IMG/VR virus record: IMGVR_UViG_3300043177_000122
Location: 64,001 to 128,000 of that record
Direction: 5' to 3' (one strand)
Origin: a virus
Lineage: Duplodnaviria; Caudoviricetes
DNA: 64,000 nucleotides
Below, piece after piece: positions 2,070 through 32,835 of the stretch; position 1 is the first letter of the stretch; the number at the start of each line of letters is the position of its first letter. Under the pieces are notes generated by a model. It had not been told where the DNA came from. It searched no databases and was given only the letters and a program-made list of their open reading frames with translations. The position numbers and the translations under genes were made by a program.

Positions 2070-2531
2070 TGTGGCTTTTATTTCAAAGCAAGAACAGATG
2101 CAATTAAATCTTGAGCAACTAAAAGTTGTGGCTGTTTAACTGGTGATTTGATTTCATCTGGAAATAAACTATCAAATAATTTGGGAGCCATTAATTTAGT
2201 AAGAAGGCACTACAAACATAATGCAAAGAAAAGGGATTTAATTTTCAAGTTATCAGAAAAAGAATTTGAAAATTTCATATTTGGGAATTGTCATTATTGT
2301 GGGGCTGAGCCCAAATTAGTGAAATTTGCTAGTAGCTCTGAAAATAGAAGAGATAAAGAGATTATCTATAATGGTATAGATAGGATTAATAATTCTGTAG
2401 GATATGTATTGTCTAATTGTGTTACATGCTGTTCAATTTGTAATACAGCTAAATCTGATCTTTCATTTGAAGAATTTAATGATTGGATAAAAAGATTAGT
2501 GAGATATAATGGCCAACAAAAAAGTTTCTAA
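2070..2531 (+). pseudogene. HNH/EndoVII-like homing endonuclease, 5' part broken
   Basis: CHYC...GIDRINNSVGY..SNCVTCCSICN..K; upstream in-frame CGFYFKARTDAIKS*ATKSCGCL has TGA at 2112-2114; no intact start. Confidence 0.65.
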
Positions 2532-4998
2532 ATTTCCGCCTAAACGTCCAGACAATTCACATATAATTAAAGCAAGATCGAAACATGACTGGTCAGATTA
2601 TCAGAAAGCAATTTTTCAAGATATTGCAAAGGGGAAAGATCACACTGTTGTAATTGCTAGGGCTGGCAGTGGGAAAACAAGCACTATTGTTGAAGGTTTT
2701 AGATATATTCCAAAAGGAACGAAAACTCTCATGGTTGCTTTTAATAAAAGTATAGCCGAGGAGTTAAAACAACGAGCCGCATCTTATATTGATGTAATGA
2801 CTCTTCATTCTTTGGGATTCAGAGCTATTAAACAAAGTTTTGGAACTGATGTTATTCTAGAGAATGACAAATGTAATATGCTTATCTCCACACTAATTGG
2901 AGATGATCGGGATATGTGGGAAGTGAATCAGAGCATTGCAAAGTGTGTTTCTCTTTGTAAGGGTTTTCTTGTAGATACTCCATCTAAAGTTGGAGATTTG
3001 ATTGACAAGTTTGGAATCGAAATATTCGATTATTCTAGAGAGAAATTTACTGAATTAGTCCTCAAGACATTAGCTTTGTGCAAAGCAAAGAAAAATGTCA
3101 TTGATTTTGACGATATGATTTGGTTTCCCTTCGTTTATCGTTTAAACGTAGGGAAATTCGATGTTGTTTTTGTTGACGAAGCTCAGGATCTAAATCAGGC
3201 ACAAATTGCCATGGTGTTATCGGCTTGTAAAGTAGATGGTCGCATTATTGCAGTTGGAGACCCGGCGCAATGTGTTGATGAAAATACTATGGTAAATGTT
3301 GACGGAGGTTGGGCTTCCGTTAAAGATTGTAAAGTTGGACAATATATACTTTGCTATAATAATAGCAAATTAGATAGTAAAAAAATTATCAACAAAGTAA
3401 AATCTAATTGGGAATATGGTTATGAAATAACAACGTATTCTGGTAAGAAATTATTGATGTCCCCGAACCATAAGATTTGGGCGTCTGCACCAATGCTTGA
3501 CGAACAATATATTGTTTATTTGATGTATAGACCAGATTTAGGTTTTAGAGTAGGTAAAACTAATACGTGGAAGGATACAAATTATCCATTTGGTTTAAGA
3601 GCTAATTCTGAAAATGCAACCAAACTTTGGGTTCTTGATATTGCAAACTCTAATGAAGAAGCTCTGTTATTGGAAGAGCAGTATTCTTTAAGATATAAAA
3701 TTCCTACATCTGTATTTAATGGTGAACATAGAAATATCAATCAAGAAAGATTAAATACAATTTTTGCAGAGTTTGGAAAAAATGGACACTTTCTTCTTAA
3801 AGATAAAAATCTGCATTTTGCATACCCACATTGGATGGCTTCCTCTAATTCTAAAATCAATAGAAGAACTGTTAGGGTAAATGCTCATTCTAAAAAAGGA
3901 ACTCAAGTAACTTTGGAGTGGAAAGACGACGCTTTAGATAAAGTGTTTATGAAACATGGGGTTATCTTTTCTAAAGGCAAGAATTCAAGAATTAGAAAAT
4001 ACTTCTCTGATTATACTAGCGCCTTATCGTTTGCAGGAATGATTGCACAACTTTCTGGCGGAGAAGTTAACGAAAGATTATCGATTAATGATAATCCATA
4101 TTTGATTACCGCATCAGGTCTTCATGTTGGAATGAAAGTATATTCTTTACTTAAAAATCAACTTGTTGATGATATGATTATCAGTATAGATAAAAAATCC
4201 GGCTCATTTTATGATTTGGAAGTAGAAGAATCGGCCAATTTCATTGGTAATAATATTCTGAGCCACAATTCTATTTACCAGTTCCGAGGAGCTGATAGTG
4301 AGGCTATTCCAAACTTTATTGATAAGCTTAAAGCCAAAACTTTACCATTGTCCGTTACCTACCGCTGTCCGATCAAGGTGGTAGACCTAGCGAAGGAAAT
4401 TGTACCTGACATTGAGGCGGCCGAGAATGCCAAGGATGGGGTGGTAGAAGAGGTTCCAGCAGAACAATTTCTTAAATTGGTTAGGCCGGGGGACTTTGTG
4501 CTCTCTAGGACGAACGCCCCTTTGATTAAACACTGTATGGCTTTGCTAAAAGCAGGGGTACCAGCCAATATTCAAGGAAGAGATGTTGGCGCCAATCTAC
4601 AATATTTCATTAAAAAATCCAAATCAAAGACTATTGTTCAATTTACAGAATATGTAAATGCATGGAGAGAACAAGAAGTTAAGCGACTATTGGCTGAGAA
4701 AAAAGATCCAATTGCAACTATCGATAAAGCAGAATGTTTATTGAACCTCTGTGAAGGAACCCTTACTATTAAGGACCTAAAAGAGACAATAGAAAAGCTG
4801 TTCAACGATGTTAATGATACTGCTAAAGTTATTTTTTCAACAACACATAAAGCCAAAGGTTTGGAACGCGATAGAGTCTTTGTTCTCACCAACACCTACC
4901 GAAAAGGAGCCGGAGGAGAAGAAGACAACCTCTGGTATGTCGCGGTAACTCGTAGTAAATCTGAGTTGTACCTGGTAAAGAAATACTTGAAGCAATAA
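2509..4998 (+). CDS. uvrD: SF1 UvrD/Rep-like helicase containing an intein
   Basis: Walker A ARAGSGKT, VDEAQD, GDPAQ|SIYQFRGA split by an insertion, STTHKAKGLE, YVAVTRSK. Confidence 0.9.
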   Translation: MANKKVSKFPPKRPDNSHIIKARSKHDWSDYQKAIFQDIAKGKDHTVVIARAGSGKTSTIVEGFRYIPKGTKTLMVAFNKSIAEELKQRAASYIDVMTLHSLGFRAIKQSFGTDVILENDKCNMLISTLIGDDRDMWEVNQSIAKCVSLCKGFLVDTPSKVGDLIDKFGIEIFDYSREKFTELVLKTLALCKAKKNVIDFDDMIWFPFVYRLNVGKFDVVFVDEAQDLNQAQIAMVLSACKVDGRIIAVGDPAQCVDENTMVNVDGGWASVKDCKVGQYILCYNNSKLDSKKIINKVKSNWEYGYEITTYSGKKLLMSPNHKIWASAPMLDEQYIVYLMYRPDLGFRVGKTNTWKDTNYPFGLRANSENATKLWVLDIANSNEEALLLEEQYSLRYKIPTSVFNGEHRNINQERLNTIFAEFGKNGHFLLKDKNLHFAYPHWMASSNSKINRRTVRVNAHSKKGTQVTLEWKDDALDKVFMKHGVIFSKGKNSRIRKYFSDYTSALSFAGMIAQLSGGEVNERLSINDNPYLITASGLHVGMKVYSLLKNQLVDDMIISIDKKSGSFYDLEVEESANFIGNNILSHNSIYQFRGADSEAIPNFIDKLKAKTLPLSVTYRCPIKVVDLAKEIVPDIEAAENAKDGVVEEVPAEQFLKLVRPGDFVLSRTNAPLIKHCMALLKAGVPANIQGRDVGANLQYFIKKSKSKTIVQFTEYVNAWREQEVKRLLAEKKDPIATIDKAECLLNLCEGTLTIKDLKETIEKLFNDVNDTAKVIFSTTHKAKGLERDRVFVLTNTYRKGAGGEEDNLWYVAVTRSKSELYLVKKYLKQ
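3271..4269 (+). mobile_element. 333-aa intein in helicase motif III
   Basis: Begins CVDENT after GDPAQ; block B SPNHKI; ends FYDLEV...NNILSHN before Ser+1 (SIYQFRG). Confidence 0.92.
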
Positions 4999-6320: not shown

Positions 6321-6812
6321 ATGAAAGACTATGATACGCCAGAGGAGTGTGAAAAGAGAGCTTCTCAAGAAGATCCTATTGTTATGTACTTAATTGTTCA
6401 TGAAACATTGAATATGAGTACAGGTAAAACAGCAGCTCAATGCGCTCATGCATCTCAGATGTTAACGCTAGAGTACTTTGAAGCTAAAGATAAATCTCGT
6501 GAATTGCAAAAACAAATTCAAAAAACTACCGATCCTGATGAGTTGCTTGTAATGAAAAGTCTGTATGCCGATTATGGTCGCAAGTTATCTATTTTTGGTG
6601 AATGGATGGAAAACTCTTTCCGTAAAGTAGTGCTTCGAGCAGATGACAAAGAATGGGCAAAAATCAAGCAAGACTATGGCCAACATATGGTTATGGTGGT
6701 TGATGCTGGTTTGACAGAAATTCCCAGCGGCAGTGAGACGGTTATAGGTCTATGGCCTATGCGCAAAAGTCAGAGGCCAAAAACTGTTCAACACTTACAA
6801 GTCTTGAAATGA
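6321..6812 (+). CDS. pth2: Peptidyl-tRNA hydrolase, Pth2 (archaeal/eukaryotic-type) family
   Basis: GKTAAQCAHA, RKVVL, VDAGLTEI.SGSETVIG; catalytic K/D/T present. Confidence 0.85.
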   Translation: MKDYDTPEECEKRASQEDPIVMYLIVHETLNMSTGKTAAQCAHASQMLTLEYFEAKDKSRELQKQIQKTTDPDELLVMKSLYADYGRKLSIFGEWMENSFRKVVLRADDKEWAKIKQDYGQHMVMVVDAGLTEIPSGSETVIGLWPMRKSQRPKTVQHLQVLK

Positions 6813-7183
6813 TACATGGATTAGTGGTACAAGAGACACAAAATCGTGGCCTTGGTGTATTTGCCACAAAACCTTTTGAAAAGGGAGAACTCATTGAGTG
6901 CTGCCATGTTATTGTTGTACCACGCACAGAGATTATGATTGGCAATACCAGTTCAGTTATGAGACATTATGTAATTGATTGGGACGGTAAACTAGCTGTA
7001 CCAACTGGTTATGGTTGCTTTTATAATCATTCATATAAGCCCAATGCCATTCATTATAAGCATATAGATTTAAATCAAATTCATTTGCATGCTTTAAGAG
7101 ATATTCTTCCATTTGAAGAGATAACGTTCAATTATGGTGGATTTCCTGACTGCAATGAAACATTATGGTTTGAGGTTAAATGA
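6809..7183 (+). CDS. SET-domain lysine methyltransferase
   Basis: GLGVFAT..FEKGELI, YNHSYKPNA, ALRDI..EEITFNYG; ATGA overlap with pth2 stop. Confidence 0.85.
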   Translation: MIHGLVVQETQNRGLGVFATKPFEKGELIECCHVIVVPRTEIMIGNTSSVMRHYVIDWDGKLAVPTGYGCFYNHSYKPNAIHYKHIDLNQIHLHALRDILPFEEITFNYGGFPDCNETLWFEVK

Positions 7184-7204
7184 AATGTACATGTCCAGGC
7201 TGGT

Positions 7205-7789
7205 ATGGTACTAAGTATCCTTGGCCACTTAGCTTATGTTCAATCTGACGAAATTTCTTTGTTAATAACAAACTATCAAACATTGGATACTCAATCTTGG
7301 TTTGATAATAATCTTCAGAAGATGATAAGTGTGGCTGCTGGCGTTGCGTCTAGTACTTTTACTACCGAATCTTGGAGAATTTGGATGGATGAGGATACTC
7401 CAAGTTTAAAGAAAATAGTACCAGCAATTTTTGATGCTAGAGCTTTTGTCCTTCCAAAAGAAGATGTTGTCAACTATTTCTTATGGCGTCAGCAGGATGC
7501 TACTAGAAACTCTGTGCAAATGTTAGCCCGATCTCTGTATTCGCACAAAGAGTGCACTAATAAAAATAACTCTGAATTACAAGAGTTGATTTTCCAAAAG
7601 GGAATCAACTGAAATGACTGCCCAACGTCACAAAAGCGTGGACGCTGTATTGTTAAAAAGTATACCAAAAAGTCTACTTTGAATCCTAAAGTTCAACAAT
7701 ATGAAACGGCACTTCGTAGTGAGTGGGAGGTTGATAATGAGATTCCTATCTTTTCACAAGATAGAAACTATATCAATCAATATGTCTAA
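7205..7789 (+). pseudogene. Thg1-like (TLP) guanylyltransferase, N-terminus missing plus internal stop
   Basis: AYVQSDEISLL, FDARAF, YFLWRQQDATRNS, GIN*NDCP..KRG (TGA 7610-7612 where Trp is expected), continues to IPIFSQDRNYI; the RLDG motif is absent. Confidence 0.85.
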
Positions 7790-8117
7790 AAGTCAAATTA
7801 GAAAAGAACGCAAACGAAAACGTTTTAAACAAAAGAAAATAAACACTAAGCTAAAGAAGAAATTGTTTGGTCATCTGTTTATGGCGCCCTGTATTTATTG
7901 TAGGCGGGCCTTTTTATTATCTACATTAACAGTTGAACACATTACGCCATTATGCCTTGGTGGAACCAATGATCCATCTAATATTGCATTGGCATGCTTT
8001 CCTTGCAATAATGATAAGGGAAGAGAAGCTTGGTTCCAAAAACGTGAATTTAATAAGAAACACTATGAACAATATCACTCACAGTATCGAATTGAAAATT
8101 GGGAAAGGATTATATAG
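7782..8117 (+). CDS. HNH endonuclease
   Basis: CIYC...TVEHITPLCLGGTND.SNIALAC..CNNDKG. Confidence 0.8.
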   Translation: MSKSQIRKERKRKRFKQKKINTKLKKKLFGHLFMAPCIYCRRAFLLSTLTVEHITPLCLGGTNDPSNIALACFPCNNDKGREAWFQKREFNKKHYEQYHSQYRIENWERII

Positions 8118-9132
8118 GAACCCAGCACACCCTTTGTGTATTGTCAAAGAGATGGTTTTTGATTATTTTGAAGATTTATCACGAATCGAAATTGATAATC
8201 CATATGTGCCTATTGAATATAATTTCGATAGACTACGTGTACCTACCGATCATCCTTCAAGACGTCCAACTGATACCTACTACAAGGATGATAAGAACTG
8301 CCTCCGCACCCATATGACATGTTATTTATATCCATTTGGGAAATCAGATACTGGTCAAAGTAAGCTTAAGTATATTACATGTGGTGACGTCTATCGAAAA
8401 GATACTATTGATGCTACACATTATCCAGTGTTCCATCAGATGGATGCATTTTGTATGGTTCCAGATGATGTAGATGTAAGGCAAGATTTGCGCAATAGGT
8501 TGCAAGGTTTAGTAAAACATCTTTTTGGCGAAAGCACAGAATGTCAGTTCTTAGAAGATTCAGAATATGAAGAGGTTTACTTTCCTTTTACAATTGATTC
8601 TGTCGAAGTGAGTGTTTCTTTACCGGATGAGCATGGCAAAATTAAACAACTAGAAATTTTAGGAGCAGGAACTGTCCATCCCGACATTATGGCCGATCTT
8701 GGTTTGCCAGGTAAAAAAGCGTGGGCTTTTGGTTTAGGTCTAGAAAGATTAGCTATGGTTATGTTCGGCATTCCTGATATTAGATTATTTTGGAGCACAG
8801 ATAAAAGATTTTTAAGTCAATTTACGCCGGGCAAGATTACCAAATTTAATCCTTACTCAAAATATGAGTCATGTTATAAAGACATTTCATTTTTCTTAAG
8901 TGAAAAATTTTCTTATAACGACCTCTGCTCTATCGCTAGAGATGAAGATGAGAACAACATAATTGAATCTATTTCATTGATTGATGAGTTCCAGGTTAAA
9001 GGCCGAACTTCGCAGTGTTATAGAATTACATATCGCTCCATGGATGGTACGTTACGAAACTCTGATGTAAATACAATTCAAAAATCAATCAGAGACCGAA
9101 TTATCCAAGAGCTAGGAGTAGAAGTAAGATGA
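8065..9132 (+). CDS. pheS: Single-chain (mitochondrial-type) phenylalanyl-tRNA synthetase
   Basis: HPSRR..DTYY, LRTHMT, GDVYRKD.ID.THYPVFHQMD, FPFT, LEILGAG, WAFGLGLERLAM...IPDIRLFW fused to an FDX-ACB domain (SKY....KDISF, SQCYRITYRS...TL). Confidence 0.9.
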   Translation: MNNITHSIELKIGKGLYRNPAHPLCIVKEMVFDYFEDLSRIEIDNPYVPIEYNFDRLRVPTDHPSRRPTDTYYKDDKNCLRTHMTCYLYPFGKSDTGQSKLKYITCGDVYRKDTIDATHYPVFHQMDAFCMVPDDVDVRQDLRNRLQGLVKHLFGESTECQFLEDSEYEEVYFPFTIDSVEVSVSLPDEHGKIKQLEILGAGTVHPDIMADLGLPGKKAWAFGLGLERLAMVMFGIPDIRLFWSTDKRFLSQFTPGKITKFNPYSKYESCYKDISFFLSEKFSYNDLCSIARDEDENNIIESISLIDEFQVKGRTSQCYRITYRSMDGTLRNSDVNTIQKSIRDRIIQELGVEVR

Positions 9133-9647
9133 AAACTGTCTATATCTTTTTTGGAGAAATGGGAAGTGGTAAAAGCTATTGTGGTTCCCGCTATGCAGAG
9201 AAGCATGGTTTCAAGTTTTTCGAAGGAGATAGTGTGGTCACTCCTCGTATGTTAGAGCGAGTTTCTAAGTTCAAAGCTATCAGTGAAGATATCTTAGAAG
9301 AATATATGGATGTTTTGGCTGATGCAATTGCCGATCAAATGACAGATTGTGAACATCTTGTTGTATCACAAGCTTTATACCGAGATGAAGATAGAAAATC
9401 TATGATTACTTTTCTTGAGTGCTTAGGTTATCAAGTAAGAATGTGGTGGGTCCAAGTTAAATGGAATCGTAACATTCAGAACTTGCTTACTAGACCAAAC
9501 GGATGGAAATGGGTTTTGTATTGGTTAATTAATAAACCATTCTTTCAAAGGCCCACTCATGTCCATCAGTTGTTTTACAATATATATATGGGTGAGCACA
9601 ATGGAGAACAAGGAAACCTTTCAAGCCAGAATTCAACCTTACTTTAG
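9129..9647 (+). CDS. P-loop kinase (gluconate/shikimate kinase-like)
   Basis: GEMGSGKS, FFEGD; 3' end runs into the next gene over a TA repeat, so the true stop is uncertain. Confidence 0.6.
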   Translation: MKTVYIFFGEMGSGKSYCGSRYAEKHGFKFFEGDSVVTPRMLERVSKFKAISEDILEEYMDVLADAIADQMTDCEHLVVSQALYRDEDRKSMITFLECLGYQVRMWWVQVKWNRNIQNLLTRPNGWKWVLYWLINKPFFQRPTHVHQLFYNIYMGEHNGEQGNLSSQNSTLL

Positions 9648-10233
9648 TCCATCAGATCAATTGGACGTTAAACTGGCATATTGCTTAGCTAAGTTTGGTC
9701 ATCGCGCCCAAACAAGAAAAGAGCTTACGGAAGGTAAACCCACTAGATATTTTGAGCATGTACGTAGAGTAGCAATTGTTCTTATGGATGAAATGAAAAT
9801 CATTGATCGTGATATGATTATTACCGCTCTACTTCATGATTCAATCGAAGATACACATGATTTAACGCCAGAACTATTAGAGCATTGCTTTGGATCTGAT
9901 GTAATCACTATGATTAAGCTGCTTAGCAAAGTTCCCAAGGAAGGATACATTGAGAGATTAGGAAATTGCCATAACTGGAAAGTATTAGCAATTAAAGCTT
10001 GTGATAGATTAGATAATCTGCGATCTTTAATGATACCGGGGACCAGTTTGGAGTTTCAAAAGAAACAAATTGCAGAAACTAAAGAAAAGTATTTCCCTAT
10101 ATTTGACAAGCTGATTAATAATCTATGTCCTCAAGAACACGTTGAAAATGTTTCGAAGGTCCGAGATGAAATTAGAAGATTAATTGAGCGATATAATACC
10201 ATTATTGAATTTCAGGAAGGAAAAACTGCATGA
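9601..10233 (+). CDS. RelA/SpoT-type HD hydrolase (small alarmone hydrolase/MESH1-like)
   Basis: H..Q.RK...YFEH..RVA, LLHDSIEDT, IKACDRLDNLR. Confidence 0.8.
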   Translation: MENKETFQARIQPYFSPSDQLDVKLAYCLAKFGHRAQTRKELTEGKPTRYFEHVRRVAIVLMDEMKIIDRDMIITALLHDSIEDTHDLTPELLEHCFGSDVITMIKLLSKVPKEGYIERLGNCHNWKVLAIKACDRLDNLRSLMIPGTSLEFQKKQIAETKEKYFPIFDKLINNLCPQEHVENVSKVRDEIRRLIERYNTIIEFQEGKTA

Positions 10234-10823
10234 CTTGTATTGTAGGATTAGTACACGATGGTGATGTATACATTGGCGGAGATAGTGCCGGTGTAGCTGG
10301 ATTATCTATTTCCATCAGGGCTGACGAGAAGGTATTTGGTAATGGGCCATTCATTATGGGTTTTACTACCTCATTTCGTATGGGTCAGTTACTAAGGTAT
10401 AAGTTATCACCCCCTGCACAGACTGTACATCAATCTGATATGGAATATATGGTAACCAGTTTTATTGATTCATGTCGTCAATGTTTTGCTGGCAATGGTT
10501 TCGGCGATAAAGACGCCACTATGGGTGGTAACTTTTTAGTAGGATACAAAGGAAAGCTTTACAACATTGAAGGTGATTATCAAGTAGGTGTTCCTAAGTC
10601 CCCATTTGATGCAGTTGGTTGTGGTTCTGATTTAGCCCTTGGCGCCATGTATGCTACCGAAGGTTTAAAGCCAGAAGAAAGAATCAATGCTGCCTTAGCA
10701 GCCGCCAGTACTTTTAGTGCCGGTGTTGCTCCCCCTTTCATTATTTTGAAGCTAGAGGGCGAGAATAAGACCAAAGCCAAGTCCAAACCAAGGAAGAAGT
10801 CGGCCAAGAGATCGGTAAAGTAA
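10230..10823 (+). CDS. Ntn-hydrolase (proteasome beta/HslV-like) protein
   Basis: Starts M-TCIVG (Thr nucleophile position), IGGDS, DEKVF, AVGCGS..ALGA; basic C-terminal tail. Confidence 0.65.
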   Translation: MTCIVGLVHDGDVYIGGDSAGVAGLSISIRADEKVFGNGPFIMGFTTSFRMGQLLRYKLSPPAQTVHQSDMEYMVTSFIDSCRQCFAGNGFGDKDATMGGNFLVGYKGKLYNIEGDYQVGVPKSPFDAVGCGSDLALGAMYATEGLKPEERINAALAAASTFSAGVAPPFIILKLEGENKTKAKSKPRKKSAKRSVK

Positions 10824-10838
10824 TAAATTGTCGTGCCC

Positions 10839-10866
10839 TTGACTTGCCACACGACAGCCTTATGTT
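10839..10866 (+). promoter_or_regulatory. sigma70-like promoter with flanking inverted repeat
   Basis: TTGACT-N16-TATGTT; TGTCGTG (10829) / CACGACA (10850) brackets the -35. Confidence 0.6.
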
Positions 10867-10950
10867 ATAGCTAGGCTGATGGGAGAGGTGTGTCTTAGGC
10901 ACGCCCTTTTAACTGGACCGCACTTACCCAATCGTAATAAGGTGAAAAAA

Positions 10951-12825
10951 ATGACTCCGAATCGTATCAGAGAGTTAGAGAACAAGATTTTCAAAGCTCG
11001 TACGGACTACTACAACCATCAACCTACTGTTTCTGACAAGGTGTATGATGCTTGGGTAGATGAACTACGCACTCTTGACCCTTCTAACAAGGCCGTAACT
11101 GCCATTGGTGCTCCAGTTGTTCCTTCTGAATGGACTAAAGCTAAGCATCAGATTCCAATGGGATCCTTGGATAAAGTTAATACTCCTGCCGAATTCTCTA
11201 AATGGGTAGAGGATACGTATCCTGATGGTAAGCTTCTTATCACCGAAAAGCTTGATGGACTCTCCATTGAGGTTATTTATGAGAATGGGCATCTTGTTCA
11301 GGCCATTACTCGTGGTGATGGTGACATTGGTGAAGATATTACTGTCAACGTTGTCAAGATGGGAGGCGTTCACTCTCACCTAAAACACAATTTTACCGGC
11401 TCTTTACGTGGTGAAATCATTATGAAGAAGAGCATTCATAAGCAATTCTTTGCTGATAAAGCTAATCCGCGTAATGCAGCATCAGGCACTAGTAAGCGTT
11501 TGGATGGTGTGGGTGTCGATAAGCTCAACATTTTGTTCTATCAAGCACTTGGTGATGTTGATTTTGGTGTGGAGCAAGCTCAATTCGCCTGGCTTGTTAA
11601 CCAAGGGCTAGATACGCCTAACTGGTGGGTAGTTAAAACTGCCGATCAAGTCAATAAATTCTGGCGTGATTACCAAGATACCAAGCGTGACAACCTGGAT
11701 TATGATATTGACGGATTAGTTATTCGTGTTGATGATATGGCCAAGCAGATGGCTCTAGGCGAGAAAGACCTCCGTCCCAAAGGAGCAATTGCGTTCAAGT
11801 TTGAAAATGAAGCTCGCGAATCTATCATTCGAGACATTGTTTGGCAGGTTGGTAACTCTGGTCGCCTAACTCCTGTTGCCACTGTTGATCCTGTTCAATT
11901 AGTTGGCGCTACCATTACACGAGCCAGCCTCTATAATTACTCTTATATTGAAGAACTGAGTCTTGATATTGGCGCCACTGTTCTTGTGGCGCGAGCTAAT
12001 GACGTTATTCCTCGTATTGAAGAGACTATCAAGAAGACAGGTACTGTGGCTAAGCCGCCCAGCAAATGCCCTGAGTGTGATGGTAAGACTGTTTTCGATG
12101 GGGAGAATCTCGTCTGTACTAATACTGAGTATTGTCGAGCACAGATCATTGGTCGTATTAAAAATTGGATTAAAGAACTTAACCTTCTTGAGTGGGGCGA
12201 TACTCTTGTTGAGAAGTTAGTTGAGGCAAAGAAGGTCAAGAACATTGCTGACTTGTACAAATTGAAAGTGGATGATATCGCTAATCTTGACCGTCTTGGT
12301 GAAAAGACAGCAAAGAAGGTGCTAGATATTCTTTGGGCCAACAAGAAAGTGCCTTTAGAAGTTTTTCTAGGTGCATTATCCATTCCTCTTATTGGGCAGG
12401 CTTCGATTAAATTAATTATGAAAGCCGGCTGTGATACTTTAGAAAAGTTTGGGCAATTAAATGCCGATGCTTTTGAACAAGTTCCTGGTCTTGGTCCGAT
12501 TAAAGCAAAATCACTGGCTGACGGTCTTAAAAATAACCAACAACTCATTCTTGATTTATTAAAAAATGGCATTGAAATCAAAGAGGCAATTGATGGTAAA
12601 TTAACCGGCAAAAGCTTTGCCATTACTGGGACTCTTTCTATCAAGCGTGCAGAAGTTGAAAAGATGATTGTAGATAATGGAGGAGAGGTTAAAAGTAGCG
12701 TTGGAAAGGGATTATCTTATCTAATCATTGCCGATCCTCAATCTGCCAGTAGCAAGGCCCAGGCGGCACGCAAATTGGGAACAATTCTTATCGACGAAAA
12801 GCAGTTTTTGGAATTGATTAAGTAA
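10951..12825 (+). CDS. ligA: NAD+-dependent DNA ligase
   Basis: EKLDG, RGE, NPRNAASG, DGLV, AIAFKF, C4 Zn finger, HhH repeats, C-terminal BRCT (FAITGTL). Confidence 0.96.
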   Translation: MTPNRIRELENKIFKARTDYYNHQPTVSDKVYDAWVDELRTLDPSNKAVTAIGAPVVPSEWTKAKHQIPMGSLDKVNTPAEFSKWVEDTYPDGKLLITEKLDGLSIEVIYENGHLVQAITRGDGDIGEDITVNVVKMGGVHSHLKHNFTGSLRGEIIMKKSIHKQFFADKANPRNAASGTSKRLDGVGVDKLNILFYQALGDVDFGVEQAQFAWLVNQGLDTPNWWVVKTADQVNKFWRDYQDTKRDNLDYDIDGLVIRVDDMAKQMALGEKDLRPKGAIAFKFENEARESIIRDIVWQVGNSGRLTPVATVDPVQLVGATITRASLYNYSYIEELSLDIGATVLVARANDVIPRIEETIKKTGTVAKPPSKCPECDGKTVFDGENLVCTNTEYCRAQIIGRIKNWIKELNLLEWGDTLVEKLVEAKKVKNIADLYKLKVDDIANLDRLGEKTAKKVLDILWANKKVPLEVFLGALSIPLIGQASIKLIMKAGCDTLEKFGQLNADAFEQVPGLGPIKAKSLADGLKNNQQLILDLLKNGIEIKEAIDGKLTGKSFAITGTLSIKRAEVEKMIVDNGGEVKSSVGKGLSYLIIADPQSASSKAQAARKLGTILIDEKQFLELIK

Positions 12826-17567: not shown

Positions 17568-19064
17568 ATGAGTTTACCTGTCATTAAGGACCAATCCGTT
17601 ATTGATCGTATTAAAGTTGTAGAGTCTGTCAAGGGATGGACTTTAAACTTTACTGACATTGTAAATAACAACAACAAGTTCTATAATCTTGAAGTTGTGA
17701 AATCGTCAGATAATAGTTTCTATCTGTATACTGTGTATGGAAGAGTTGGAGCTAGCGGTGCTAAAGAGTATCGCGCTTGTTCTTCTCTTGCTCAGGCAGA
17801 AAAAGAAGCTGAAAGCATTATCAAATCCAAGAACAAAAAGGGATATATTGAAGTTAAACTTGCTAAAGCAGATGTTGGGTCTGAACAAGGTAAAGAGAAA
17901 GTGGATATTTCTGTTACCGTTGAGTCTTTGAAAAAGGCTGGCGTTCAAGTAAAAGAGGAGCCGCAAGTTGCAAGCAAATTGCACCCCGAGGTTCAAGATC
18001 TAGTTCGTACTTGGTTCGGTGTTACACAAGAGTTCGTCGAGTTGAACTTGGATACTAAGAAGTGCCCGCTTGGTCAATTATCTCTTGATCAGATTGATAA
18101 AGCCAAACAGATTCTTGGTGAAGCAACCAAGATTGTTAATCTCAAGAAACCAGATGTTGATGAGCTTAACAGTTTGACTAGCCAATACTACTCTAACATT
18201 CCACACGTACTCCCACATAGAATTAATGCCGATCTTCTGCGCTTTGATGATATGGCAAAGATTACTAAAGCACAAGATATTCTTGATGTCTTTGCAGATG
18301 CTAAAAATGTTCAAGCAGTTATTTCCAAGAAAAGCGCTGTAGATTCACAGTACGCAACCTTAAACGCTGGACTTGAGTATGTAGAACCTACCGATCCAAC
18401 TTGGAAATGGCTTGAGGCAATGGTTCATGAAACCCGCGCTTCAAATCACTCTGGTTTAGGTAAGATTAAAGTTCATAAAATCTTCAAACTTGCTCGTAAT
18501 GATGAGCAAAAACATTTTCTTGAGACGGCTGGTAAGATTGCCAAAGAATGTGGAAATTGGAATCCCTCTCCAATCTACTCTAACTTGGTTAAGAGGCGCC
18601 CTGATGTTCCGAAGGAGTTACAAGAGCTTTATGCTAAAGCTAACATCCTTCCAGGTTGGCACGGCACTCGTAGAGCCAATATGATTGGTATTACTACTAA
18701 AGGGTTGTTGATTCGCCCATCTGGTGTTATCCATGCGGGGTCTATGTATGGTGATGGTATTTATTGGGCCGTTCATAGCACTAAGTCTATTAATTATTGT
18801 GATGTCAAAGGCTCTTACTGGGCTCAGGGTGCTAATAAAACCGCTTATCTCTTCTTAGGAGACGTAGCCTTCGGTAATCAAAAAATGGCTGGCGGATCCT
18901 ACATGTATACCAAGAAGAACATTGCTCCAAACCATTCGGTGTGGGCCAAGTCTGGTGGTTGCTCAGGTCTATACAACGATGAGCTGATTACATATACTGC
19001 ATCTGGTCATGGCCAACAGCATGTACTTCGTTATATCATCGAATTTGAAACGCAGGCTCGCTAA
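17568..19064 (+). CDS. Poly(ADP-ribose) polymerase-like protein: WGR + helical regulatory + ART domains
   Basis: NNKFYNLEV..YGRVG (WGR); CPLGQLS, YYSNIPH (regulatory); WHGTR..N, GSMYGDGIYWA...KSINY, LYNDELITY, LRYIIEF (H-Y-E triad). Confidence 0.9.
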   Translation: MSLPVIKDQSVIDRIKVVESVKGWTLNFTDIVNNNNKFYNLEVVKSSDNSFYLYTVYGRVGASGAKEYRACSSLAQAEKEAESIIKSKNKKGYIEVKLAKADVGSEQGKEKVDISVTVESLKKAGVQVKEEPQVASKLHPEVQDLVRTWFGVTQEFVELNLDTKKCPLGQLSLDQIDKAKQILGEATKIVNLKKPDVDELNSLTSQYYSNIPHVLPHRINADLLRFDDMAKITKAQDILDVFADAKNVQAVISKKSAVDSQYATLNAGLEYVEPTDPTWKWLEAMVHETRASNHSGLGKIKVHKIFKLARNDEQKHFLETAGKIAKECGNWNPSPIYSNLVKRRPDVPKELQELYAKANILPGWHGTRRANMIGITTKGLLIRPSGVIHAGSMYGDGIYWAVHSTKSINYCDVKGSYWAQGANKTAYLFLGDVAFGNQKMAGGSYMYTKKNIAPNHSVWAKSGGCSGLYNDELITYTASGHGQQHVLRYIIEFETQAR

Positions 19065-29530: not shown

Positions 29531-30490
29531 ATGAGAATTCTGTCGGGTATACAACCGTCAGGAACAATTCACATCGGCAACTATTTTGGAATGATCAAGC
29601 CCTTGGTCGATTTACAAGGTAAGGGAGAAGTGTATTGTTTCCTTGCGGATTATCATTCAATGACATCATTGTTTGATGCAAAAGAACGTAAAGCAAATTC
29701 AATTGAAGCAGCAACTACACTGCTAGCGTGTGGCATGGATCCTAAAACTGTTTTGTTTCGACAGTCAGATAGTCAGTCAGTGACTGAGCTAGCATGGATG
29801 CTTTCTACTGTAACTCCAATGGGCCTTTTAGAAAGGTGTCATAGTTACAAAGATAAAACTTCTAAAGGCATCCCAACCAATCATGGTTTGTTTGCTTATC
29901 CTGTTTTGATGGCGGCTGATATCCTACTATACCAATCTAATTTGGTACCAGTAGGAAAAGATCAACTTCAGCATTTGGAAGTGACGCGAGATATTGCCGT
30001 CAAGTTCAATACTACGTATGGGGAAATATTTACACTCCCCGAGCCCTATATTCAAGAAGCGGTAGCAACTGTTCCTGGAACTGATGGACAGAAGATGTCT
30101 AAAAGTAATGGTAACACTATCGAAATCTTTGGAGATGAAAAAGTTCTTAAGAAAAAGATAATGTCTATTGTGATGGATAGCCGCTCGCTGGCCACGCCAA
30201 AACCAGATGCAGATAAGAATATTGCAATTCAACTTCTAAAATTAGTAGCTCCGATGAATGTTGCTGAAGAATATGAAATGGAATTGCGAGATGGCTATCT
30301 TGGTTATGGTCAGCTTAAGAATGTTCTATTCGAACAATATTTTAGTTATTTTGAGAAACCAAGAGCATTGTATCAGGAATTGAAGAAGAATCCGGACTAT
30401 GTAGAGCAAATTCTTCAAGAAGGTGCAGAACATGCCCGCTATCAAGCCCATCGTACGATGGAAAAAGTAAGAGAAGTAGTGGGTTTATGA
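29531..30490 (+). CDS. trpS: Tryptophanyl-tRNA synthetase (bacterial type)
   Basis: GIQPSG.IHIGNY, YPVLMAADIL, VPVGKDQLQHLE, KMSKS. Confidence 0.96.
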   Translation: MRILSGIQPSGTIHIGNYFGMIKPLVDLQGKGEVYCFLADYHSMTSLFDAKERKANSIEAATTLLACGMDPKTVLFRQSDSQSVTELAWMLSTVTPMGLLERCHSYKDKTSKGIPTNHGLFAYPVLMAADILLYQSNLVPVGKDQLQHLEVTRDIAVKFNTTYGEIFTLPEPYIQEAVATVPGTDGQKMSKSNGNTIEIFGDEKVLKKKIMSIVMDSRSLATPKPDADKNIAIQLLKLVAPMNVAEEYEMELRDGYLGYGQLKNVLFEQYFSYFEKPRALYQELKKNPDYVEQILQEGAEHARYQAHRTMEKVREVVGL

Positions 30491-30932: not shown

Positions 30933-31616
30933 ATGAATAAATTAGTTGTATTTGATATCGCTGGCACCACAATTGAAGACAATGATGCGGTTGGTCAAGC
31001 TTTTTTGAAAGCTTTTTTATCGTTCGGGTTAAATCCAACCACTGAACAAATTAATAATGTGATGGGACTATCCAAACCACAATCTATCAAGATTATTCTG
31101 AAAGAGCTAGATAACACTACTCCAATTGCTGAAATACACGATCAGTTTTTAAAGAATATGATTGAGCATTATAGTCTTGATGAAAATATAAAAGAAATAC
31201 CTGGAGCTGCTGAAACATTCAACACCCTACATGAAATGGACTATTATGTAGCTCTTGATACTGGATTTAGTCGAGACATTACAAATATCATTCTAGATAA
31301 GCTAGGATGGGTTAACCAAGGATTAGTAGATGCTGTTGTTAGCAGCGATCAAGTCAAATATGGAAGACCTTATCCATATATGATATTCAAGTTAATGGAG
31401 ACGCTCCATATCAAAAGCGTCCATGATGTTGTAAAAGTTGGCGATACTGTCGCCGATATTTATGAAGGTTTAAATGCTGGGTGTGATGTAGTAATAGGCG
31501 TCACTACTGGAACAGAGACTAAACAATCTTTCAAAGAAAAATTATCCGGGTGTCACTACTGTGTAATGGATGACATTACAGAAGTGCCCGCTTGTTTACA
31601 TTACACTCCTATTTGA
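30933..31616 (+). CDS. Phosphonatase-like (PhnX-like) HAD hydrolase
   Basis: VVFDIAGTT, ALDTG, GRPYPYMI, VKVGDT..DI.EG.NAG. Confidence 0.75.
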   Translation: MNKLVVFDIAGTTIEDNDAVGQAFLKAFLSFGLNPTTEQINNVMGLSKPQSIKIILKELDNTTPIAEIHDQFLKNMIEHYSLDENIKEIPGAAETFNTLHEMDYYVALDTGFSRDITNIILDKLGWVNQGLVDAVVSSDQVKYGRPYPYMIFKLMETLHIKSVHDVVKVGDTVADIYEGLNAGCDVVIGVTTGTETKQSFKEKLSGCHYCVMDDITEVPACLHYTPI

Positions 31617-31623
31617 GGAAGTC

Positions 31624-32835
31624 ATGTCTAATATATTCGAAGATTTGGAGCAGCGTGGTTTGATTAAACAAACAACCAACGCAGATAAGTTGCGTCAACT
31701 ATTTAACTCAAATACTCCAGTCACGTTTTACATTGGATTTGACCCCACTTCTGATAGTTTACATATAGGCCACTTACTTCAAGTAGTAACAGCTAAGCGA
31801 CTAGTCCAAGCTGGGCATCGAGCTATCATGTTAGTTGGCGGAGCAACCGCTTTGATTGGAGATCCGACAGGCAAGTCAGAAATGCGAAAAATGCTTTCTC
31901 ATTCTGATATTAGGGTAAATGGTGAAGCCATCGGCGCCCAGATTCAAAAAATAATGGGAAGAGAAATTGAATTAGTCAATAACCTAACTTGGTTTGATGA
32001 TGCTGATTTTCTTTCTCTTTTGCGTACCATTGGCCCCTTTTTCTCTGTTAATAATATGTTGCGAGCTGAGTGCTTCAAAAGTCGAATGGAGCATGGACTC
32101 TCATTTTTAGAGTTCAATTACATGATTATGCAGGCGCAAGACTTCCGAATGCTTCATTTGGAAGAGGGCTGCATTTTACAAATTGGCGGTGATGATCAGT
32201 GGTCTAATATCTTAGCTGGTATTGATTTGATTCACAAAAAGCATGGGCACGAAGTATTCGGTCTAACACTTCCTTTGTTAGTCAATTCTGATGGAATCAA
32301 AATGGGAAAGACGGAAAAAGGAGCGGTGTGGTTGGGTCCGGCTAAAACTTCTCCCTCTGAGTTTTTTCAATTTTGGAGAAATATTCCTGACGATCAAGTA
32401 GAAAAATGTCTTCTTTTCTTTACTGATATGAAACCGGGTGAGTTGATTGAATCGTCTTTTAATATCAACCATCACAAAAAAAATCTAGCATTTGAAATTA
32501 CGAAATTGGTTCATGGCGAATCAATAGCACGACAGGCGCTCGAGCAGGCAGAAGCCTTGTTCGAGAAACAAGATACTTCTACTCTTGAAGCAATTTCTAT
32601 CCAAGAAGGCACGCACATTCTTGATTTACTTATGGTATGTGGTTTTGCAAAATCACGTACAGGTGGTAGAAATTTAATCAATAATAGAGGGATCTCAATA
32701 AACCAAGATGTTCTTACTGACCCTACGATTGTAATTTCCAGAAATCAGTTTGGAAATGAATTAATTGTGAAAAAGGGCAAGAAGAATTTCTGTCGCCTGC
32801 TTATTGAGGATAAATGCCAAGACCAAGTACCGTAA
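31624..32835 (+). CDS. tyrS: Tyrosyl-tRNA synthetase (bacterial type, S4 C-domain)
   Basis: YIGFDPT.DSLHIGH, EF.Y..MQA.DF, QIGGDDQW.NI, KMGKT, KKGKK. Confidence 0.96.
   Translation: MSNIFEDLEQRGLIKQTTNADKLRQLFNSNTPVTFYIGFDPTSDSLHIGHLLQVVTAKRLVQAGHRAIMLVGGATALIGDPTGKSEMRKMLSHSDIRVNGEAIGAQIQKIMGREIELVNNLTWFDDADFLSLLRTIGPFFSVNNMLRAECFKSRMEHGLSFLEFNYMIMQAQDFRMLHLEEGCILQIGGDDQWSNILAGIDLIHKKHGHEVFGLTLPLLVNSDGIKMGKTEKGAVWLGPAKTSPSEFFQFWRNIPDDQVEKCLLFFTDMKPGELIESSFNINHHKKNLAFEITKLVHGESIARQALEQAEALFEKQDTSTLEAISIQEGTHILDLLMVCGFAKSRTGGRNLINNRGISINQDVLTDPTIVISRNQFGNELIVKKGKKNFCRLLIEDKCQDQVP

Follow-up and report, generated by a model that had tools for sequence, protein, structure and literature searches.

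We have analysed a 64,000-nucleotide stretch of viral DNA (hereafter the window), which corresponds to bases 64,001–128,000 of the 358,993-bp IMG/VR record IMGVR_UViG_3300043177_000122, and found that the gene at window positions 8065 to 9132 encodes a single-chain phenylalanyl-tRNA synthetase (PheRS) of the type known from mitochondria (PheRS-M). Judged by its sequence, its modelled structure and its phylogenetic position, the phage protein can be assigned to the PheRS-M family, although it is not an organellar protein, and it is very probably an active one-chain synthetase which requires no partner subunit. Sequence identities and phylogenetic trees also place it close to the organellar enzyme. 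The single-chain form itself is not organelle-specific, being the sole PheRS in a subset of bacteria of the candidate phyla radiation (CPR) and common in large viruses.

A preliminary description, made from the nucleotide sequence alone, had proposed that a class II catalytic core and a ferredoxin-fold anticodon-binding (FDX-ACB) domain share one chain of about 355 residues. This holds on closer analysis: the open reading frame (ORF) is intact, both domains are recognized by Pfam (Table 1), and the segments RFLSQF, FNPYSKY, KDISF and SQCYRITYRS are all present. The core (residues 17–253) contains motif 2 (GDVYRKD...FHQMD), the FPFT signature and motif 3 (WAFGLGLERL), and an 11-residue linker joins it to the FDX-ACB, these being the only two domains that Pfam detects in the protein. 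The FDX-ACB aligns to positions 698–798 of the pheT model, its homolog in bacterial PheT being the B8 domain at the C terminus. The open frame reaches upstream to a TTG at 7933; as the majority of the 120 closest homologs are 355 residues long, the ATG at 8065, which sits 53 nt inside the 3′ end of the preceding HNH endonuclease ORF, is the likely start. From there the chain runs for 16 residues ahead of the core, without N-terminal extension or presequence. Using NCBIfam models we obtained 260.8 bits for TIGR00469 (pheS_mito), a narrow pass over the cut-off of 258.35, 193.7 bits for NF051887 (SrmL), below its cut-off of 300, and 166.8 bits for the bacterial pheS model TIGR00468 (cut-off 237.45), in this case along profile positions 66–323 only; other phage and giant-virus members of the family score 280–331 bits with TIGR00469. 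The pass with the mitochondrial model and the two-domain composition bear out the earlier assignment to a mitochondrial-type PheRS devoid of an editing domain.

Comparison with solved structures leads to the same assignment. In a sequence search human mitochondrial PheRS comes first, with 225 bits (E 1e-65), and bacterial alpha subunits reach 3e-36 at best. The AlphaFold2 model of the phage protein, built on a 30-sequence alignment, has a mean predicted local distance difference test score (pLDDT) of 93.9 and a predicted template modelling score (pTM) of 0.90, and Foldseek overlays it on the closed-state human structure 3CMQ over both domains (template modelling score, TM, 0.89; root mean square deviation 2.6 Å), the open, tRNA-bound structure 3TUP fitting at TM 0.65. 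The FDX-ACB of the model is folded like a ferredoxin and rests against the core in the manner seen in 3CMQ. Like human FARS2 and yeast Msf1, which define PheRS-M, the phage chain unites a PheS core and an FDX-ACB and has neither a beta subunit nor the B3/B4 editing domain. It differs from them in being encoded by a gene of a bacterial phage instead of a nuclear gene, in lacking the organellar presequence and the insertion of ~30 residues that follows motif 2 in the human enzyme, and in having Asp in place of Glu in FHQxEG. In respect to bacterial PheS (TIGR00468), the cores are homologous, with 36–38% identity over residues 13–253, whereas the N-terminal helical arm, the PheT partner and the (αβ)2 assembly of the bacterial enzyme have no counterpart in the phage protein.

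The gene is under strong purifying selection, with a dN/dS of 0.027 in respect to a 91%-identity homolog; for more distant homologs synonymous sites are saturated and protein identity still amounts to 70–86%. Within 121 homologs of the clade the residues H83 and T85 (LRTH-T), R111 (motif 2), Q125, D127, F173, F175 and T176 (FPFT), A221 and R228 (motif 3) are invariant, A221 being the counterpart of E. coli A294 when the positions are mapped onto the T. thermophilus and E. coli enzymes. The anticodon-binding (ACB) domain is conserved like the core, as inferred from mean identities of 0.73 and 0.77, respectively, in the same homologs. The earlier statement that there is no pheT in the window can be extended to the entire record, where nothing matches the pheT model except the FDX-ACB of the PheRS gene itself; PheT is likewise absent from five related huge-phage genomes that are 93–100% complete, where the sole strong match is again the FDX-ACB of the single-chain gene. 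We have also noted weak matches to the N-terminal OB tRNA-binding part of PheT (positions 42–123, E 1.5e-5 to 4.5e-3) in small ORFs of related complete huge phages (G001:C1:475090–475329, G004:C1:102840–103058 and G005:C1:229506–229763), which could represent a stand-alone tRNA-binding helper. The record of the phage under study carries two tRNA-Phe(GAA) genes (C1:23823–23898 and C1:23908–23982), each with G1-C72 and A73 followed by CCA. The determinants described for monomeric mitochondrial PheRS are the GAA anticodon, G1-C72 and A73, and the human mitochondrial enzyme charges bacterial tRNA-Phe efficiently (review, PMC4394434).

The setting is that of a prokaryote-type phage, as had been stated from the outset. 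Genes for a head-maturation protease, a tail sheath protein and the terminase large subunit (phrog_675, E 1.2e-57) lie on the same contig as the PheRS gene and assign this contig to a tailed phage with a contractile tail. Its genes are densely packed, with 341 of 403 ORFs on one strand, and the record (38% G+C) is rated 83% complete by CheckV. Close relatives, with PheRS identities of 70–91%, are found on contigs of up to 480,838 bp, this longest record being rated 100% complete, and the phage genome is roughly 430–480 kb in size. The lineage is uncultivated: the identity of its terminase large subunit to that of any phage deposited in GenBank is at most 27%, and 20 kb of the window, compared by megablast with the phages in GenBank, gave no match. 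The only sequencing runs listed as bearing the locus are two freshwater DNA metagenomes, possibly the source samples, with no RNA run among them, and an identical PheRS gene is present in two separate Logan assemblies. The ten-gene order Kelch-Pth2-(SET)-Thg1-like-(HNH)-PheRS-(AAA_33 kinase)-HD_4 hydrolase-(197-aa ORF)-NAD ligase, of which the portion from Pth2 to the NAD-dependent DNA ligase spans window positions 6321–12825, is found on five independent contigs from other samples, the most divergent of which is devoid of the HNH and kinase genes.

These observations bear on two alternatives to a genuine phage synthetase. One is that the gene is an artefact, resulting from a chimera or from a eukaryotic or giant-virus contaminant miscalled as phage, to which the presence of several neighbours from families common in eukaryotes and giant viruses would lend some colour. 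It is refuted, and we attach practically no weight to it: the structural and packaging genes of a phage share the contig, the identical gene comes from separate assemblies, and the objection of a eukaryotic chimera raised in the preliminary description is excluded by the gene block, which is found again on independent contigs of different samples, one of them the complete 480,838-bp record. A capsid of nucleocytoplasmic large DNA viruses was searched for in 13 related records, and this search, which had no positive control, gave no match. The other alternative is that the protein is a repurposed paralog, be it a ligase for another acceptor, a decoy against host defences directed at PheRS or tRNA-Phe, or a 'mystery ligase' in the manner of SrmL. 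The latter family (NF051887) also combines a PheS-like core and a C-terminal domain in one chain of ~350 residues and is also found in a huge phage, since ORF L011:2863–3939 of the 634,780-bp uncultured phage LR745206.1 scores 423 bits (cut-off 300). Several points do weigh against the interpretation as an active PheRS. SrmL, a sister family of the same architecture, is listed as a ligase with no assigned function, so that the combination of core and ACB is by itself no proof of tRNA-Phe charging; the TIGR00469 cut-off is passed by only 2.4 bits; and the Glu of FHQxEG is replaced by Asp (D127) throughout the clade while other lineages keep Glu. D127 lies at a position that binds substrate in the T. 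thermophilus enzyme, and the change from Glu to Asp is conservative. A repurposed protein would be in line with this substitution and also with the conserved block of tRNA-repair and rescue genes (Pth2, Thg1-like, HD_4 alarmone-type hydrolase, NAD ligase). However, the protein passes the pheS_mito model and falls below the SrmL cut-off, SrmL forms a long separate branch in the phylogenetic trees, the catalytic and Phe-pocket positions are invariant, including the A294-equivalent Ala and FPFT, the anticodon-binding domain is conserved, and cognate tRNA-Phe genes are present. We thus regard repurposing as improbable.

For an active one-chain PheRS, a mechanism may be outlined after the solved human enzyme; the monomeric state, the catalytic activity, the domain swing and the role in infection are predicted properties. 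The class II core would bind Phe and ATP and yield Phe-AMP, and the FDX-ACB, packed on the core in a resting closed state, would swing out and read the GAA anticodon, upon which Phe would be passed to A76 of tRNA-Phe. As beta subunit and editing domain are both missing, the active site would have to secure accuracy by itself. The enzyme would keep up the supply of Phe-tRNA-Phe in infected cells, probably for the two tRNA-Phe(GAA) of the phage and probably for host tRNA-Phe too, as one part of a large translation kit made up of 57 tRNAs, TyrRS, TrpRS and Pth2. In this way 1.07 kb would deliver a function that takes two genes in the usual bacterial form. A bypass of an attack on host PheRS is a plausible candidate role; a more modest reading is that the gene contributes to general translational autonomy, as described for huge phages (PMC7162821).

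The distribution of single-chain PheRS is broad. A search of 1.84 billion cluster representatives with the phage protein gave 241 matches at E ≤1e-30, and the nearest named relatives are eukaryotic mitochondrial PheRS, from locust (47% identity) and from Schizosaccharomyces (Msf1) and a fern (both 45%). Single-chain forms of 330–380 residues are encoded on huge-phage contigs of 494/388, 519 (with terminal repeats), 430, 323, 236 and 208 kb, all of which have terminase matches, and extra copies occur on phage-like contigs of 340, 31 and 29 kb. The gene is thus carried by at least six divergent huge-phage lineages, between which identity is 39–54%. The preliminary description was also right in that giant viruses (Nucleocytoviricota) have single-chain PheRS: such copies, with 35–40% identity to the query, lie on GVMAG-named contigs, on a 1,473,573-bp viral record and on contigs with ubiquitin, ankyrin, zinc-finger and class I aminoacyl-tRNA synthetase (aaRS) genes, the giant-virus label resting on the GVMAG names and on this gene context. 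They belong to the same family and to the viral part of the tree, but differ from the phage enzymes in forming a tight clade of their own and in coming from viruses of eukaryotes. Ordinary bacterial pheS genes in the phage collection were mostly found in contaminated or unverified records, one with adjacent pheT, and were kept as outgroups only.

Two premises of the preliminary description need to be revised in view of the bacterial sequences. A metagenome-assembled genome (MAG) of Saccharibacteria has a single-chain PheRS and no PheT, and was the only informative one among the matches listed in a profile scan of genome contigs dominated by canonical PheS. In the Saccharibacteria class, 16 of 81 sampled genomes (G014–G094; loci such as L065:4001–5029 and L148–L159) have a single-chain PheRS, and exactly these 16 are without a full PheT, whereas 64 of the remaining 65 matched PheT beyond its C-terminal domain; the one-chain enzyme seems to have replaced the two-subunit one in those lineages. 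Across the Patescibacteria phylum, 19 of 301 sampled genomes match single-chain PheRS at E ≤1e-40, and a protein from an Oligoflexia MAG clusters with the bacterial single-chain forms. The CPR proteins have the same architecture as the phage enzyme, with open frames of ~380–430 residues and 33–45% full-length identity to it; they differ from it in being cellular housekeeping genes, not viral accessory ones, and in falling in a separate clade. The statement that bacteria use only the (αβ)2 form was too broad, and the view that the single-chain form is typical of organelles is outdated, because a subset of CPR bacteria uses the single chain as its only PheRS.

We have carried out four IQ-TREE analyses (LG+C20+F+G4 with posterior mean site frequencies, PMSF) on alignments of 90–95 rows and 353–365 columns, rooted on three bacterial PheS cores, after removal of fragments, of rows on long branches and of some of the eukaryotic sequences. 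The resulting supports are to be read bearing in mind that the outgroup is alignable over the core only, that several rows deviate in composition and that the ultrafast bootstraps stopped short of full convergence; bacterial single-chain sequences were sampled as two rows in trees 1 and 2 and as a CPR-type clade in trees 3 and 4. In all four trees bacterial PheS stands apart from the single-chain proteins (100/100), and viruses plus eukaryotes form a clade (99/97, 100/98, 99/93 and 96/97) that leaves the bacterial single-chain sequences outside; a bacterial single-chain (CPR) clade, supported by 100/98 in the fourth tree, is sister to it. The phylogenetic check that had been called for is thus answered, as the phage PheRS groups with the organellar enzymes and not with ordinary PheS. 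Support is full for the clade of the query (100/100) and nearly so for that of the giant viruses (100/97 to 100/99). How phages, giant viruses and eukaryotes branch inside the joint clade, in turn, varies from one data set to another. Trees 1 and 2 contain one virus clade (85/70 and 88/79) amid unresolved eukaryotic lineages, whereas in trees 3 and 4 a eukaryotic clade comes out of unresolved phage lineages, with L058, from a 323-kb phage contig (G009), basal in both (at the base of the eukaryotes with 92/83 in tree 3) and L050, from a 208-kb contig (G008), joining it in tree 4 (93/77 and 94/91). In the approximately unbiased (AU) test, a single clade of the 42 viral rows is not rejected (p 0.558), the tree constrained to virus monophyly exceeding the unconstrained one by 5 log-likelihood units. 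The insertion lying between motif 2 and FPFT was considered as a shared derived character and rejected: eukaryotes range from 44 to 121 residues in this place, and many of them are without the insertion. A separate case is the PheRS at L051:3001–4083, on a contig filed as viral (IMGVR_UViG_3300035162_000991, 33 kb), which nests in a eukaryotic subgroup (100/81 with a 429-residue representative); either a virus of eukaryotes has captured the gene recently, or the contig is eukaryotic and was wrongly classed as viral.

Two opposite histories may account for the joint clade. According to one, the PheRS of mitochondria and plastids came to eukaryotes from a lineage akin to huge phages, an origin like that which has been put forward for the Twinkle helicase and for the phage-type RNA polymerase of mitochondria. 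The joint clade of viruses and eukaryotes with the CPR bacteria outside (99/93 and 96/97 in trees 3 and 4) is in agreement with it, as is the emergence of the eukaryotic clade from the phage set, with L058 and then L050 at its base, in two of the four trees; also, the low identity between phage lineages suggests a long residence of the gene in phages. However, the backbone is unresolved and the other two trees unite all viruses among eukaryotes, the AU test keeps virus monophyly, with the constrained tree slightly better, viral sequences evolve fast, the trees are rooted on a bacterial PheS aligned over its core only, and no indel provides a clean shared marker. We hold this history to be rather unlikely on present evidence. 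In its fuller version, in which single-chain PheRS is old, bacterial and phage-borne, and the eukaryotic ancestor received its mitochondrial PheRS from a huge-phage-like virus, it would be equally speculative; the branching of eukaryotes from among phage lineages in two of the four trees is rejected by none of the tests. According to the opposite history, giant viruses took the mitochondrial PheRS of their hosts and huge phages acquired it later, either from giant viruses or from eukaryotes, in habitats common to them, for instance bacteria-carrying protists, so that the phage gene would be a derived copy of the organellar enzyme. This would explain why the nearest named cellular relatives are eukaryotic mitochondrial PheRS at 45–47% identity and why the tight giant-virus clade adjoins the phage lineages, and it agrees with the single virus clade amid eukaryotic branches of trees 1 and 2 and with neighbouring genes of a eukaryotic or giant-virus flavour (PARP, SET, Kelch, Pth2). 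Yet in no case are viruses nested with support in a specific eukaryotic group, and in tree 2 it is the giant-virus clade that branches amid phage lineages and not the reverse (95/84). Moreover, the fact that at least six huge-phage lineages carry the gene requires either one old transfer or many transfers, and gene flow from eukaryotes to phages is generally known to be rare. Capture from eukaryotes is therefore a tentative explanation, which we consider possible but doubtful. Of the earlier suggestion that a phage lineage may be a relative or the source of the organellar enzyme, the former part stands, being sustained by the identities and by the joint clade, and the latter is a possibility of rather low probability, given the unstable topology and the outcome of the AU test.

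The features found around the PheRS gene are collected in Table 1. The start of the P-loop kinase gene (9129) overlaps the stop of the PheRS gene, and the HNH ORF that precedes the latter is probably a mobile insertion, since it is missing from the 70%-identity relative L007. The Pth2, Thg1-like and HD hydrolase neighbours, together with the RNA ligases and polynucleotide kinase (PNK)-like genes that lie near PheRS in other phage lineages, suggest a tRNA-maintenance setting.

Table 1. Position in the window of the single-chain PheRS gene, its domains and other genes considered in the text (L004–L008, loci of related phages).
Feature	Position	Strand	Basis and occurrence
Single-chain (PheRS-M type) phenylalanyl-tRNA synthetase gene	8065..9132	+	355 residues plus stop, stop-free translation
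Class II PheS-type catalytic core	8113..8823	+	Residues 17–253; Pfam PF01409 tRNA-synt_2d, E 4.8e-50
FDX-ACB domain	8857..9129	+	Residues 265–355; PF03147, E 2.7e-17
Pth2-type peptidyl-tRNA hydrolase	6321..6812	+	PF01981, NF003314, TIGR00283; syntenic in L004–L007
Short Thg1-like protein	7205..7612	+	PF04446 Thg1; syntenic in L004–L007
HNH endonuclease ORF	7701..8117	+	Pfam HNH, HNH_5; in L004–L006, not in 70%-identity L007
AAA_33/gluconokinase-like P-loop kinase	9129..9647	+	PF13671 (weak), TIGR01313 3.8e-07; not in L007, L008
Stand-alone RelA/SpoT-type HD hydrolase (HD_4)	9559..10233	+	PF13328; N-terminal part of TIGR00691, 1.2e-15; syntenic in L004–L008, 77–91% identity
Tryptophanyl-tRNA synthetase	29531..30490	+	TIGR00233, 282.7 bits (cut-off 176.75); PF00579
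Tyrosyl-tRNA synthetase	31570..32835	+	TIGR00234, 369 bits (cut-off 113.8); PF00579

With PheRS, TrpRS and TyrRS the phage has a synthetase for each of the three aromatic amino acids. In the complete relative there is one more aaRS, of class II and of the Asp/Asn/Lys type, and a search for the aaRS families tRNA-synt_1, 1c, 1d and 2b found none. Among the 57 tRNA genes of the record, which is 83% complete, no tRNA-Trp gene was found. Outside the window, at C1:144353–144509 of the genome, there are two adjacent tRNAs with a CUA anticodon, amber suppressors which ARAGORN labels Pyl. Elsewhere in the window we have noted an 829-residue UvrD-type helicase with an intein (2509–4998; Pfam Intein_splicing) and a 498-residue protein with the full set of WGR, PARP regulatory and PARP catalytic domains (17568–19064), which is unusual in a bacterial phage.

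In the literature that we searched we found no description of a mitochondrial-type PheRS in phages. Al-Shayeb et al. (2020) treat phage aaRS in general terms only, with one 'alpha subunit' annotation in the supplementary data, and the papers searched describe phage aaRS genes as related to those of the host. The phage PheRS stands in contrast to this, being closest to the eukaryotic organellar and giant-virus enzymes. The annotations in use do not convey it, as the JGI name for these genes is 'PheS alpha chain' and most other sources leave them unnamed.

Taken together, a minimal PheRS devoid of proofreading, long held to be peculiar to mitochondria, is widespread among huge phages, and giant viruses and a subset of CPR bacteria have it too. 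Its phage variants are compact and presumably soluble one-chain proteins (338–367 residues in the copies examined), of interest for biochemistry and for the engineering of orthogonal pairs, and useful for studying how accuracy is attained without editing. The origin of mitochondrial PheRS can now be tested with real outgroups, the lineages of L050 and L058 being the phages most relevant to the question of a phage origin. If true, a phage source would join a translation enzyme to the phage-derived RNA polymerase and helicase of mitochondria.

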